A DNA stretch of 58,597 nt, taken from an uncultured Spirochaetota bacterium (GTDB lineage Bacteria > Spirochaetota > Spirochaetia > Treponematales > Rectinemataceae). Shown piece after piece: positions 35,238-39,370 of this stretch. The first letter of the stretch is position 1. Every line of letters begins with the position of its first letter. Below the pieces are notes generated by a model. It saw only the letters and a program-made list of their open reading frames with translations, ran no database searches and was not told the origin of the DNA. The DNA lies in the NCBI GenBank assembly GCA_963828175.1, contig CAWHFT010000126.1, forward strand, positions 1-58,597, read 5' to 3'. Position numbers and translations under genes: made by a program.

Positions 35238-37322
35238 CTACGTCTTCCTGATGAGCATCAGGCTGACATCATCCGCGTAACTCCCGCCATAGGCCTTCCT
35301 GTCGCCGTTCTCGGCGAAGGCTTTCAGCCGCTCGAGTATGGCTTGCTTCGTGGCGGATAGGCTCTCCTTCGATGCCTCCCGAAGCGCTTCCTTGAGACCA
35401 TTCACTCCGAAGAATCGGTCGTTCATGTCTCGAGCCTCGATGAGGCCGTCGGTGTATAGGAGAAGGATGTCCCCCTTCTTCATCGAGAAGCTGCCCTTTG
35501 AACCGCCGGAAGAGGCATACTCAGAAATGCCTTGGAAGGCTGCCCTCCCCTGCATCCCTTCAATTTCGTCTATCGCGCCGGAATCAACCCGATGGACGAG
35601 GCCTATCAGGTGCGAGCCGGCGTAGGAGATAGTGCCTTCCCTCTCGGTAAGGATATTGCAGGTCATGAACTTGTCGCTCCCGATCCTGTTCCTATTGATC
35701 TCGATAAGGACGGCATTCACGATATCGTAGAGGGACGATACTTCGAGCTCGTAGCCGGCGATCTCGCTCGTACGTAATGCTGCGTGGAAGGCGGCCATAT
35801 GGACGAGGGCCATGATCCCCGCGGGAAGCCCATGCCCGGCCACGTCGGCGATATCGATAAAGCCACCATAATTCGTCTTCACAAAATCGTAGAGGTCGCC
35901 GCCGACCTCGGACGCGGTGATCATCTGGGCCTCGGCCTCGTAACCCACCATTTCGAGGTTCTTGGGGAGGATCGATGTCTGGATGCCCTTGGCGATATCC
36001 ATTTCCCGGGTAAGGCGGTTTTTGTCGTCCAGCATTCGCTTGCTATCGATTATGGTGAAAACGAGCGAGAGATTCCTCACGAGGGACTTAAGGATGACGT
36101 CCTCCTGTGGGAATATGCGGTCGAAATCGCTTTTAAAGAGGACTATCATACCCCGTAGGTCCTCCTGGTTGTAGATCGGCTGGAGGACGATTAGCTTGAA
36201 GAGCCGATCGAGGCTGAGAGGCAGGTCCTCGACGCGAACTTGTGACTTCGTTTCGACCATCTTCTTGATCGCCTTTTCGGCGAAGCCGAGCTCCGACTCC
36301 GCCGCCTGTGTTATGCGGGAGAGGTCGAATACCTGGGACATGATTTGGCTATGGAGCACTTCGGCCCTCATTTGCTTGATATTCTCGACGTCCTTGAGAG
36401 GCGTGCAATACTCAACGATGAATTCTTCCCTGTCTACGGCCAGGAGATCGCCAGCCCTTCTGAAGGCCATCATCGATCGGAAGACGAGGTCGGTCTTTAC
36501 GAAGCTCTTCTGAAATTGCTCGCGACAGGCTGATAGCGTGTCGCCGATGAGTTTTACGTCTTCCTCGGGCGAGGAGAGGAGCACGCGGTTGAGGAGCTCC
36601 GTGCGGCCCTGCTCAAACTCGAGCTGACGGACATGGATATCGTTGACGTGGCCCATGCGATAGACAAAGTATTCCTGAAAAATCCGTATCGCGAAGACCG
36701 CGTTGTTCGCCATGAACAGGAGGATGAAGATAGGGGACCCGGCATCGGCTACCCACGAGGCCACGAGGACGACCGTGGAGACGGCGGCGCCCGTGTAAAA
36801 GGTGTAGGATACGCGCCTGACGATACCCTTCTGGAGGTCAAACACGAAATTCGAGAAAAGGTAGGAGACAGACACGGCGACCGAGGCGACAACCCTTATA
36901 AAAAACAGGTAAACCCCGGAATTACTCGATGAGAAATCCAGCGAGATGTTGAGCGCCCAGCAGCCGGCTAGGGCCGCCGCGGCGACGACGACGACGACGA
37001 CGAGCCAGAGCGCCTTGCGCACAAAATCCTTTACGAGGAGATTCTTGTTGATGCGCTGGACGTGGACCGAGTACTCGAGGATGAAAAACAGGGGCGCGTA
37101 GAGCGCCTGGAGGGTGAAGACAAGCGGGAAGCCGCGCCTCTCGTCCTTGCCGACGGCGAAAAGGGAGATCAACGCGGCGACGCCGATCAGAACGAAGAAC
37201 GCGAGCGCGCCCAGAAGGATGCGGGGTCGAGTTCCGTATTCCTTACGTTTACTGGCGTCGTACCAAAGCGGCGTGCAGAACGCGAGGATGAAAACGAAGG
37301 ATAATAGGTAAACCTGCTTCAT
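35238..37322 (-). CDS. Membrane-bound PP2C (SpoIIE-type) serine phosphatase, SiaA/RsbU-like
   Basis: About 7 N-terminal TM segments and a central linker. The C-terminal PP2C blocks are ASEVGGDLYDF, DVAGHGLPAG and LLLYTDGLIEA. Confidence 0.85.
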   Translation of the reverse strand: MKQVYLLSFVFILAFCTPLWYDASKRKEYGTRPRILLGALAFFVLIGVAALISLFAVGKDERRGFPLVFTLQALYAPLFFILEYSVHVQRINKNLLVKDFVRKALWLVVVVVVAAAALAGCWALNISLDFSSSNSGVYLFFIRVVASVAVSVSYLFSNFVFDLQKGIVRRVSYTFYTGAAVSTVVLVASWVADAGSPIFILLFMANNAVFAIRIFQEYFVYRMGHVNDIHVRQLEFEQGRTELLNRVLLSSPEEDVKLIGDTLSACREQFQKSFVKTDLVFRSMMAFRRAGDLLAVDREEFIVEYCTPLKDVENIKQMRAEVLHSQIMSQVFDLSRITQAAESELGFAEKAIKKMVETKSQVRVEDLPLSLDRLFKLIVLQPIYNQEDLRGMIVLFKSDFDRIFPQEDVILKSLVRNLSLVFTIIDSKRMLDDKNRLTREMDIAKGIQTSILPKNLEMVGYEAEAQMITASEVGGDLYDFVKTNYGGFIDIADVAGHGLPAGIMALVHMAAFHAALRTSEIAGYELEVSSLYDIVNAVLIEINRNRIGSDKFMTCNILTEREGTISYAGSHLIGLVHRVDSGAIDEIEGMQGRAAFQGISEYASSGGSKGSFSMKKGDILLLYTDGLIEARDMNDRFFGVNGLKEALREASKESLSATKQAILERLKAFAENGDRKAYGGSYADDVSLMLIRKT

Positions 37323-37355
37323 GGAGCCTCCTGCAACGACAGATTATTCGCAGCG

Positions 37356-38480
37356 CTACTGCGCCGACCCCTCCGGAGACTCATTCGCCATCTGCGCCAC
37401 CTTTCGAAGATCGGTGGAGAGGCTGTCAAACAGCGAGGTGTCGTTCCCTGATACGAGATCCGCCGCCGCCGATTCGACATTGGCCGCCATCGATCGAAGG
37501 CGCTCGAGTTCCTCCTCTGATTTTTGCTTACAAAGGTCACTTACCGTCCTTACGACCTCGTTGGCGAGCATGACCCCCTGAAGGTTCCCAGCCACCGCGA
37601 CCAAGGCCTCCTTCTCTTCATTGACCCCGTCGTTCACGCCGCGAATTCGGTCGGAAACCGCTTTGACCTTATCTTGTATGGCGAGGACGATGGAGGTTAT
37701 TGCTTTCAAGGAGGACTCAGTGCTCTCCGAAAGCTTCCTCATCTCCTTCGCAACTACGGCGAAAGGCTTGCCGTGACCGCCTGCATTCGCGGCTACAATC
37801 GAAGCGTTGAAGGAGAGGATATTCGTCGTCGAGGCAATATCGGACATGATCGTGAGAATCCCGGAAATCCTCTTGGATTCCTCGAGGAGACTGGTGGTCT
37901 CGGCGAGCGAGCCGGAGAGCTCGCCGGCCATATCCGCGGCGCGCTTTTCCACCTTGCGGGAAAGGTTGAACGCCGCTTCTGCAGAATTGGCGAGGTTATT
38001 GGCTATACCATAGATTTTTTCGACGTTCTCACGGATGAAGTCGGAGCCCCCCCTCGCGGCCGCTAAGGAATCGCTCAACGCGGAGATGGCCGTCCACGCG
38101 GCCTGTATCCGCCCCCCGCGAGCAAGGAGGGCGGTGTCGGACTCGAGGAAGGAAGCCGTGATCTTGCGTATGCGAGCGAGCCTCGACCTAGCCCCGAATT
38201 CCTCGGTGGTCTGGACAGCCTCCTCCGCGGAAGGCCGCTCTGCCTCGGTCGGCGAAGCGATAGTTGCGACCGCAGGATCGCCCGGCGCGACCTCTAGCTC
38301 CGCCGCCTCGCTTCGCCGCCTGCGGAGGCGAGTGGCGGCATAGGCGATCGCCGCGGCGTCGACGGCCAGCACCAGGGCCAGCCTGATGCCAAAAGGACCC
38401 GGGCCCGGAGGCCCCGGAAGAAACATGATCGCGGCGTGGAGGAGGGGGAGGACTATGGCCGAAGCGATGAGTCTATTCAA
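37356..38480 (-). CDS. Methyl-accepting-chemotaxis signalling (MA) domain protein without a recognisable sensor or HAMP domain
   Basis: Two N-terminal TM segments. A diverged hairpin-tip motif [40 protein letters not shown]. Confidence 0.75.
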   Translation of the reverse strand: [374 protein letters not shown]

Positions 38481-38853
38481 GTTGCACAGCGCCCGGCAAA
38501 AGGAATGTGAGTGTCGGCAAGCTCGTGGTCTGCCACGAGATGGATTTGTTCTGCAGGATCTTTATTACGTACTTTTTATCGGCCGGCGAGGTGGAGAGAT
38601 TCATTATCCATTTCGCGATGGCCTTGATGCCGCTCGAATTGAGGAAGGCGAGTTCGCGAAGATCGAATTCCACGACCTTGAGCCCGGAAGCGATAGCTCC
38701 CTTGTGGACGTTATCGAAGAGGGGATCGAGGATCACGCTGGGATCTTGCATGTCGATATCGCCTACGACCTTGATGGATAGACCCGCCGCGTTATCGCTT
38801 ACGTCGATCGTGACTTTGCCCTGCTTTATCTGCTCGATGCCAAGCTTGTTCAT
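38473..38853 (-). CDS. SiaC/DUF1987-like (STAS-like) partner-switching protein, 126 aa
   Basis: IKVVGDIDMQDPSVILDPLFDNV and VVEFDLRELAFLNSSGIKAIAKWI parallel the G-S-x-PE and Y-x-N-[TS]-S-S-x-K blocks of DUF1987. It overlaps the MCP-like gene by 8 nt. Confidence 0.6.
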   Translation of the reverse strand: MNKLGIEQIKQGKVTIDVSDNAAGLSIKVVGDIDMQDPSVILDPLFDNVHKGAIASGLKVVEFDLRELAFLNSSGIKAIAKWIMNLSTSPADKKYVIKILQNKSISWQTTSLPTLTFLLPGAVQLE

Positions 38854-38889
38854 CTGGTCCCTCCGGTTGTATCTCGATCGCCTGCGACC

Positions 38890-39370
38890 CTATTTCGAGT
38901 AATTGAGCTTGATCGTGACCCTGTCGCCCTCGACCTGCAATGCCATGGTCCCGCCCGTTTCGTAGCGTATTCGCACGAGGCCCAGCTGGCTCTTGCCGTC
39001 GCTCCTCGTCGCCGCCACTCGCATCATCGACAGGTAGGCCTCCAACGGATCGCCGGCCATGACGCTGTCCCAGATCGCCTTGAGCCCTGCGATAGCCTCG
39101 GAAATTCGCCTTATTCGACACCGAAATCTCGACGTCCCCGTTCTTGGCGGAAAGACCCACCTTAATGCGCGTTTCCTCGCCGATCGCGTACTTGACGGCG
39201 TTCTCAAGGAGCTCGCTCGCGGCCATTGCGATCTTATCCGCGCGCGCGTCGTCCGAAAAACCGATTGCGAGGAAATTCTGTATGAATGCCCTCACCACGG
39301 CGATGTATTTCCATCGCGGTCCGAATTTCAATTCGATGTAGCCGTCGGTCTCGTCGACGTCAATGGGCAT
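38890..39370 (-). CDS. RsbW/SiaB-like anti-sigma-type serine kinase (HATPase fold), frameshifted as assembled (+1 near 39105)
   Basis: DKIAMAASELLENAVKYA (N-box-like) ...GDVEISVSNKA, then ISEAIAGLKAIWDSV...SQLGLVRIRYETGG in the next frame. Length is 481 nt (3n+1). Confidence 0.6.

Follow-up and report, generated by a model that had tools for sequence, protein, structure and literature searches.

Partner-switching modules are known as regulators of sigma factors; a few of them act instead on diguanylate cyclases, on type III secretion or on the synthesis of polysaccharides. The closest described relatives of the locus reported here are SiaABCD of Pseudomonas aeruginosa by way of working, the SpoIIAB/SpoIIAA and RsbW/RsbV pairs by fold, and the slr1658/slr1659 pair (NCBIfam entries NF047703 and NF047705; slr1657-slr1660 of Synechocystis) by sequence family. 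In the first of these the switch protein SiaC binds the helical stalk of SiaD, and SiaC-SiaD, HsbA-HsbD and BgrV-BgrR are all cases of STAS-type switches that act on diguanylate cyclases (PMC8457831). For the last, disruption of slr1658 leads to poorer recovery from iron limitation and to a de-repression of pgr5 by about 1000-fold; the experimental data on this pair are genetic only (PMC7555055, PMC6525291). We analysed a contig of 58,597 nucleotides (nt) from an uncultured Spirochaetota bacterium of the Rectinemataceae (GenBank assembly GCA_963828175.1, contig CAWHFT010000126.1; hereafter the window, meaning this whole stretch), which carries on its minus strand, at 35238-39370, four head-to-tail genes that we term K, S, M and P. 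They encode an RsbW/SpoIIAB-fold protein of the GHKL type (K), a small STAS-fold switch protein (S), a membrane-anchored protein with the signalling hairpin of methyl-accepting chemotaxis proteins (MCPs) (M), and a PP2C/SpoIIE-type sensor phosphatase with multiple transmembrane segments (P). On balance we favour the reading that K-S-P is a serine-phosphorylation partner-switching module and that M is its dedicated effector, a chemoreceptor hairpin stripped of its sensor and HAMP domains. We rate the cassette as a previously undescribed form of partner switching with a chemoreceptor-hairpin partner. An earlier note on this DNA, prepared without database searches, had likewise been aware of no system of this composition, and no description of a K-S-MCP-PP2C cassette was found in the full-text literature searched, which leaves most subscription journals outside its coverage, so that this absence is not proof.

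The K gene lies at 38890-39370 (159 amino acids (aa) after repair of a frameshift, see below), S at 38473-38853 (126 aa), M at 37356-38480 (374 aa when read from a TTG) and P at 35238-37322 (694 aa), all on the minus strand. K and S are separated by a gap of 36 nt, S and M overlap by 8 nt, and M and P are separated by 33 nt, which agrees with the co-directional arrangement given in the earlier note, the overlap being dependent on the TTG start of M; the FLNSSGIK motif of S and the hairpin segment of M quoted there are both present in the translations. Ahead of K, S and P there are GGAGG sequences of the Shine-Dalgarno type. A candidate sigma-70-like promoter (TTGACA-16-TATAGT, 39419-39446, minus strand, 11 of 12 consensus matches), predicted by consensus match, lies about 49 nt before the start codon of K and is the sole strong minus-strand promoter-like site in 34900-39800. 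In most of the loci that we fetched from other sources the S-M junction is similarly an overlap of 8 nt or 4 nt, or a gap of at most 28 nt. With a single promoter-like site and with tight or overlapping junctions both in the window and across loci, the four genes look like one operon. The terminator-like hits inside the operon all fall within coding sequence and lack convincing T-tracts, and we do not read them as a sign of separate transcription. Rfam gave no match in 34900-39800, and the defence-system search with PADLOC gave none for any of K, S, M and P.

For the comparative analysis, genome loci were taken as the best 80 of 121 hits to the single pattern LxFLNSSGIK, and 14 metagenome loci came from a scan for the F[IM]NSSGIK subfamily; the former set is biased to the motif and by the ceiling on hits, and the counts are not frequencies. 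The open reading frames (ORFs) of the fetched loci (L001 and so on) were labelled with profiles built in this analysis. Hits of the M profile that overlapped S ORFs were ignored as contamination by way of a 221-aa fusion in L007, and a clean seed model of M was used. K adjoins S in nearly every fetched locus. All four genes of K-S-M-P are found together in about 27 distinct spirochaete loci (L023 and L032, see below, included), whose flanks differ and whose S identities go down to about 50%. The gene set, whose neighbourhoods the earlier note had proposed to follow across genomes, is thus conserved as a unit and is not a chance arrangement. Five independent contigs with unrelated flanks show a HATPase_c_2 gene, the 126-aa gene, an MCPsignal gene and a SpoIIE gene in this order, the annotated flanks of relatives consist of unrelated housekeeping genes, and the window has only K, S, M and P in common with the relative L008. 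The order may be shuffled while the set is kept, as seen in the P-K-S-M arrangement of L023 and L032 and the P-M-K-S arrangement of L076, a metagenome-assembled genome (MAG) of Sericytochromatia (MCPsignal E-value 5e-25); a further arrangement, K-S-M(-K), is found in L082, L084 and L085. An exhaustive profile search (E<=1e-3) places the S family at 984 representative clusters at 50% identity, and close homologues of S (58-89% identity), nearly all of 126 aa, are present in many spirochaete metagenome contigs. The source names of the matches suggest at least two cultured carriers: Gracilinema caldarium, with matches for both S and K, and Spirochaeta cellobiosiphila, with a match for K alone.

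The predicted structure of S points to a STAS-type antagonist. Its AlphaFold2 (AF2) model (predicted local distance difference test score, pLDDT, 93.7) shows the STAS fold with Ser73 (codon 38635-38637, minus strand) at the N-terminus of helix 73-87, the second helix of the domain. In Foldseek comparisons the best matches by E-value are anti-sigma antagonists, with SpoIIAA, RsbV and RsfB among them (4qtp, 1tid_B, 6m36_H, 8ih8_A), while the highest TM-scores, 0.70-0.72, are those of SiaC (7e6g_F, 6kko_C). A profile alignment places the FLNSSG segment of S against FMDSSG of SpoIIAA and pairs Ser73 with the first serine of the latter, which by count on the B. subtilis sequence is the phospho-acceptor Ser58. 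In 53 diverse sequences of the family N72, S73, G75 and W107 never vary. Hence the suggestion that FLNSSGIK occupies the phospho-acceptor position is supported by an invariant serine at the start of helix 2 that aligns with the DSSG of SpoIIAA. The model thus displays the conserved, phosphorylatable serine at the start of helix 2 that marks STAS antagonists, and by analogy Ser73 would be the residue that is phosphorylated. The likeness of S to SiaC is one of fold: the proposal that S belongs with SiaC/DUF1987 failed, in that DUF1987 (PF09345) is not matched in Pfam even at E<=10, where only STAS, STAS_2 and one unrelated family are listed, and a profile search of the PDB sequences with S at E<=10 does not list SiaC. 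The Pfam STAS model itself is reached only below threshold (14 bits against 22.6, E-value 0.04), and the top-scoring named family is NCBIfam slr1659_superfam (NF047705; 49.5 bits against a cut-off of 100).

The situation of K is comparable. Pfam recovers HATPase_c_2 in this protein (29.7 bits, cut-off 27.4), and its top-scoring named family is NCBIfam slr1658_superfam (NF047703), at 54.8 bits against a cut-off of 100. Its AF2 model (pLDDT 87.7) has SpoIIAB, RsbW, UsfX and SiaB as the best PDB matches in Foldseek (SiaB, 6kko_A, TM-score 0.65). Of the RsbW/SiaB-like kinase predicted earlier, the fold and the HATPase_c_2 assignment therefore stand and membership of the SiaB family does not, as the repaired K has no match to SiaB (NF038262) at E<=1; the K of L056, a distant paralogue, reaches 19.8 bits with that model against a cut-off of 85. 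Some K orthologues (e.g. P0333) barely reach Pfam DUF6272 (PF19788; 26.8 against 26.6 bits), a model that the K of the window does not match; DUF6272 may correspond in Pfam to the family of K.

In the window the K gene is split into two frames (38792-39370 and 38890-39207). A three-frame translation set against the K of L008 shows that the first frame ends in ...ISVSNKANF while the other goes on with ...SEAIAGLKAIW, and that one T too many is present in the TTT run at 39102-39104 (minus strand), where TT is expected; its removal yields the 159-aa K, which is collinear with the intact K proteins of relatives, mostly of 154-172 aa. The frameshift suspected near 39105 is accordingly present in this sequence. 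The repaired junction, SNKANSEAIAGLK, is identical in P0270, which comes from another metagenome, is intact and shows 99% identity to the repaired K (157 of 159 residues). The K codons before and after the shift are conserved as well, with 84% and 64% identity to the K of L008. Frame shifts are also seen in two nearby genes, namely a Zn-dependent alcohol-dehydrogenase-like gene near 43465 and a SorC-like regulator gene near 42405 (both within 41255-44125, minus strand, where the mechanically called 956-aa ORF is a read-through of several genes). Furthermore, the contig L007 (ENA ERZ25039486 contig_31791) is 99.35% identical to window positions 35001-38981 and differs by 10 indels in 4 kb, which break up its S, M and P genes and generate the 221-aa S fusion mentioned above; it looks like a poorer-quality assembly of long reads, from the strain of the window itself or from one very close to it. 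As an intact, 99%-identical K exists, as two nearby genes are also frameshifted, and in view of the indels of L007, the break in K is probably an assembly indel and not the mark of a pseudogene, and these observations suggest that the contig of the window carries uncorrected single-base indels. The broken frame at 39102-39104 could also be taken to mean that in this organism the whole cassette is decaying into pseudogenes. This we hold to be very improbable, given that S, M and P are intact, the K codons are conserved on both sides of the shift, an intact K of 99% identity is found in another sample, two further frameshifted genes lie within 5 kb, and 10 indels per 4 kb relative to a 99.35%-identical contig are typical of uncorrected long-read assemblies.

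A second question concerns the catalytic state of K. In the N box the protein keeps E53, N57 and K60, and it also has a G2-like motif, DGKSQLGLxRIRYE (with G130); all of these are invariant in the K alignments. The position of the G1-box Asp is taken by Asn86 (codon at about 39112-39114, minus strand), which is invariant in 16 diverse K proteins and in 25 orthologues, and the G1 glycines are absent; in profile alignments PhoR, WalK and RsbW have the Asp of their DxGxG box opposite Asn86. In GHKL ATPases this Asp contacts the adenine amino group, and its replacement by Asn abolishes ATP binding in Hsp90 and GyrB. With the G1 Asp replaced and the glycines missing, we can only infer kinase activity for K, and from these residues it may be either a pseudokinase or a protein that recognises its nucleotide in an unusual manner. 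If K were a pseudokinase, S would be bound independently of phosphorylation or would be served by another kinase, and the analogy with the phospho-cycles of Sia and Rsb would be misleading. The invariance of Asn86 speaks for this alternative, which we nevertheless judge to be quite improbable: invariant E53, N57 and K60 and an invariant G2-like glycine motif are unexpected in a dead nucleotide pocket, S retains its invariant serine at the phospho-acceptor position, and most of the orthologous cassettes also encode a PP2C that is catalytically complete.

That PP2C protein, P, contains a Pfam SpoIIE domain in residues 491-692 (E-value 1.2e-21) and holds all four metal-site motifs of the family (GDLYD475, DVAGHG493, YTDG623 and DDVS684). 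Hydropathy indicates about 6-7 hydrophobic segments within residues 1-215. The prediction of a SiaA/RsbU-like PP2C with multiple transmembrane segments is thus upheld as to the SpoIIE domain, its four motifs and the membrane region, but not as to the SiaA family proper (NF038263), where P reaches 50.9 bits, the cut-off being 700, and aligns in its PP2C domain only. The P of the window and that of Sericytochromatia share 29% identity over 274 aa and are alike only in the PP2C domain and the preceding helix; where we speak of P as occupying the same slot in different lineages, the same type of module is meant and not full-length orthology.

The remaining gene, M, sets this cassette apart. Pfam identifies MCPsignal (PF00015) in residues 174-337 (76.7 bits against 34.6, E-value 2.5e-21) and finds no other domain in the protein, that is neither a sensor nor a HAMP domain. 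The alignment to Tsr 309-496 is free of gaps and hence covers the full signalling hairpin. By hydropathy, two transmembrane segments lie within residues 4-52, about 8 residues apart; a linker rich in Ala, Glu and Pro comes next and leads over about 100 residues from the membrane anchor to the helical bundle. These features match the earlier description of M as two transmembrane helices and an MCP hairpin domain only, provided that translation begins at the TTG. The gene caller's alternative start, ATG 38426, gives a 356-aa product (P0390) with a single transmembrane helix and a gap of 46 nt to S; the TTG at 38480 is favoured because the homologues have two N-terminal hydrophobic segments, as does the TTG version. 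Some orthologues of M, in L001, L012 and L041, measure 230-272 aa and lack the transmembrane part. As M has no sensor or HAMP domain and as some orthologues even lack the membrane segments, its input must come from the cytoplasm.

The hairpin tip of the cassette M proteins differs from that of ordinary receptors in a consistent manner. Among 26 unique sequences the position of Tsr E385 is always Val, and E391 is kept in just one, whereas N381, G390, G393 and F396 are kept in all 26; in the subclade of the window R388 is in addition replaced by Asn. In the receptors of E. coli E385, E391 and R388 (Tsr numbering) are trimer-of-dimers contacts. The ordinary MCPs encoded in the fetched loci keep the NA[AS]IEAA..GE tip. 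By these sequence features the cassette M is a distinct subfamily with a fixed tip signature, and the strong conservation of the tip implies a partner at this site. Of the methylation sites, Tsr 311 and 493 align by inspection to K155 and to the single Glu of a VES sequence, and EE pairs are found elsewhere in M. JGI names the cassette M 'methyl-accepting chemotaxis protein', and the NCBI and JGI labels of K-S family members are 'ATP-binding protein', 'hypothetical protein' and again 'methyl-accepting chemotaxis protein'.

The main reason for reading M as an effector and not as a sensor comes from the genes that take its place elsewhere. In Sericytochromatia and cyanobacteria a gene for a protein with GGDEF and HD_5 (HD-GYP-type) domains follows S, and in several loci a PP2C gene comes next. 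Pfam confirms both domains in L068, L069, L071, L075, L078 and L079, and a profile made from these six proteins labels the same type of gene in L073, L074 and L077 and in the spirochaete MAGs L059 and L060. L069 is an exception in its layout, with the GGDEF+HD_5 gene directly upstream of K and with P on the other strand. In the metagenome loci L092, L095-L097, L099/L100 and L102, which count as four distinct loci, an HD_5 protein adjoins K-S, accompanied by a PP2C in L092 and L099/L100. The idea that M occupies the slot of a diguanylate cyclase, which had been put forward from comparison with the Sia system, thereby gains comparative support from L059, L060, L068, L071, L073-L075 and L077-L079. 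Since these enzymes of cyclic di-GMP (c-di-GMP) metabolism take the slot of M in related K-S(-P) modules, the swap parallels the action of SiaC on SiaD, HsbA on HsbD and BgrV on BgrR. The cyanobacterial and Sericytochromatia relatives also remain below the slr1658/slr1659 cut-offs (K 66-70 and S 49-56 bits against 100); with scores at about half of these cut-offs, the whole K-S group is best seen as an unnamed sister family.

Several observations weigh against M being the dedicated effector of a serine-phosphorylation switch. In 12 spirochaete loci (L018, L022, L026, L035, L037-L039, L046, L047, L050, L066 and L067) K-S-P occurs with no M between or near its genes, and in about 20 more distant paralogue loci of spirochaetes neither a P nor a co-directional M nor a c-di-GMP enzyme is found within 4.5 kb of K-S. 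The core switch can thus do without M. The genome sample, drawn with one peptide pattern and limited to the best 80 of 121 hits, is biased. Asn86 at the G1 Asp position means that K may not be a conventional ATP-dependent kinase. The altered tip of M, with E385V, the loss of E391 and R388N, makes its docking into CheA/CheW arrays uncertain, and there is no che gene in the neighbourhood of the cassette in the window. We also considered whether M might be hidden within the longer P proteins of the cassettes that lack it, and rejected this, as there is no M match in L018, L022, L035, L037 and L039.

The loci without M also speak for an alternative in which K-S-P is an ordinary switch of the RsbW/RsbV/RsbU type with its output elsewhere, for example a sigma factor held by K or a distant c-di-GMP enzyme. 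M would then be an accessory input or scaffold that, for instance, modulates K or P by tethering them to the membrane or to arrays of receptors. The occurrence of K-S alone in many more loci and the anti-sigma-factor kinases as the closest folds of K fit such a scheme. A precedent for a flow from receptor to switch is also available, in that F7-type che clusters lie upstream of such switches, with RsbU/RsbV in the F7 che clusters of Vibrio and CrsR/CrsA with Che1 in Shewanella (PMC10107281, PMC9855816). We consider this alternative unlikely, though it deserves more weight than those discussed above. Neither the cassette of the window with the genes beside it nor the genes called in L001-L009 include an apparent sigma-factor gene, and the annotated flanks of relatives are, as said, housekeeping genes without relation to it. 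M offers no sensory domain for an input role, bona fide output enzymes with GGDEF and HD-GYP domains are found in the S-P interval of related modules, and unlike the F7 clusters the cassette has no receiver domain, CheA or CheW that could join M to P. As M lacks a sensor and the cassette lacks Che proteins and receivers, a signal flow from M to the switch is unlikely.

Under the favoured reading, with M as the effector, P would use its polytopic N-terminal region to sense some cue in the membrane or envelope and would then dephosphorylate Ser73 of S, while K would put the phosphate back on the same residue; these two steps are inferred from fold, motif and gene context. S would bind the coiled-coil or helical bundle of M in one phospho-state only, which the analogy with SiaC suggests to be the unphosphorylated one; alternatively, S and M might compete for K, with S drawing K off M. 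Binding of S would shift the signalling state of M, and the conserved hairpin tip would relay this to a partner, most plausibly proteins of the CheW/CheA type. Gene context and analogy suggest the contact of S (or of K) with M, the direction of its effect and the coupling to chemotaxis.

A broader and more tentative proposal, which we would not yet call probable, is that K-S represents a widespread unnamed plug-in phospho-switch for interchangeable effectors with helical stalks, which would be c-di-GMP enzymes in cyanobacteria and related lineages and an MCP hairpin without a sensor in spirochaetes. In the latter, the phosphorylation of the serine of S would directly set the state of the hairpin, and a PP2C sensor would thereby gain an input to CheA/CheW arrays, or to another partner of the tip, that bypasses ligand binding and methylation. 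Within this proposal K may be a GHKL kinase with unusual nucleotide recognition, having Asn for the adenine-binding Asp. If these ideas hold, the chemoreceptor hairpin would be a new output class for partner switching, and there would be a route by which serine phosphorylation biases chemotaxis-type signalling in spirochaetes, whose motility control is incompletely understood. The present analysis also delimits a large K-S family that is without a name, and the swap between MCP hairpins and c-di-GMP enzymes in one slot offers a natural comparative system for the study of how STAS-type switch proteins recognise helical effectors.

Several variants of the cassette and of its surroundings are of separate interest. 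In L082 (2323-4876) and L084 (3226-5819) a second K paralogue follows the MCPsignal protein to give K-S-M-K, and the position of Tsr E385 is Thr; in L082 a hybrid protein with PAS, histidine kinase and receiver domains is encoded directly upstream. The spirochaete MAGs L080 (7980-9763) and L081 (7980-9835) have two mirror-image K-S pairs in the order S-K-K-S, followed in L080 by a gene for a BrkB-family membrane protein. In a distant group of spirochaete K-S paralogues (L048, L052, L054, L055 and L061, at about 5850-7300 on the opposite strand) an MCP of 481-486 aa with the canonical tip (NASIEAAKAGE) is divergently encoded upstream of K-S, with no PP2C nearby; this may reflect either a functional linkage or the shared ancestry of close genomes. 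A cheW gene about 3 kb upstream of the cassette is seen only in L001, L008 and L009. In these loci, the closest relatives of the window with long contigs, K is directly preceded by co-directional genes for a cyclic-nucleotide-binding protein, CheW, an MTS-type methyltransferase and an uncharacterised protein of about 220 aa (L001 1379-6261; L008/L009 2240-6300), with a ferredoxin-like gene in L001 only; none of these upstream genes is found anywhere in the window.

In the window the operon lies in a stretch of lower GC content (28000-40000, 0.51-0.58 as against 0.62-0.67 in the flanks), which may be a variable islet. Downstream of P, inspection by eye shows ORFs that resemble an ArsR-like regulator (31889-32344), an S-adenosylmethionine-dependent methyltransferase (30923-31819), an ArsC-like fusion (29401-30444), a receiver-only response regulator (32360-32737) and, in a short ORF, the C-terminus of a tyrosine recombinase (34055-34411). 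On the plus strand, 33009-33497 holds a Cys-rich ORF of 162 aa (CCCSGNDRG...) with several CxxC-like spacings.

When set beside the described systems, the cassette shares with the che clusters that contain STAS and PP2C genes the presence of chemoreceptor-type and partner-switch genes in one locus. Those clusters carry CheA, CheW, CheY, CheR and CheB together with a phosphatase bearing a receiver domain, whereas the cassette has neither a Che protein nor a receiver domain. CheS of the alpha-proteobacteria, a STAS-only protein, binds CheA (PMC12654446), and STAS proteins can thus act inside chemotaxis pathways. With slr1658/slr1659 the cassette has in common the pairing of a GHKL-like protein with a small regulator, and these are its best named families, but the K and S of the window score at about half of the curated cut-offs. 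SpoIIAB/SpoIIAA/SpoIIE and RsbW/RsbV/RsbU provide the best folds for K and S by E-value, an FMDSSG counterpart to FLNSSG and a PP2C; the cassette differs from them in lacking a sigma factor, in the Asn of the G1 box of K, in an S that stays below the STAS threshold and in having an MCP hairpin gene between S and P. With regard to SiaABCD, no sequence-level membership of its families is seen for S, K or P, and the effector of the window is an MCPsignal protein and not a diguanylate cyclase. The gene order of siaABCD also differs from K-S-M-P, and the phospho-acceptor of SiaC is Thr68, as against the putative acceptor Ser of the NSSG motif in S. The SiaABC-like partner-switching operon proposed in the earlier note hence holds in its architecture, in its unusual partner and in its folds (SpoIIAB/RsbW/SiaB for K, SpoIIAA/RsbV/SiaC for S), and not in the Sia and DUF1987 family labels. 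SiaABCD has nonetheless the same set of parts in one operon, namely a membrane PP2C, a small kinase of the GHKL fold, a STAS-like switch of about 125 aa and an effector other than a sigma factor. The structural match of S to SiaC and of K to SiaB, the GGDEF proteins in the effector slot of related K-S-P modules, and the nature of M, which like the stalk of SiaD is a helical bundle, extend this likeness.

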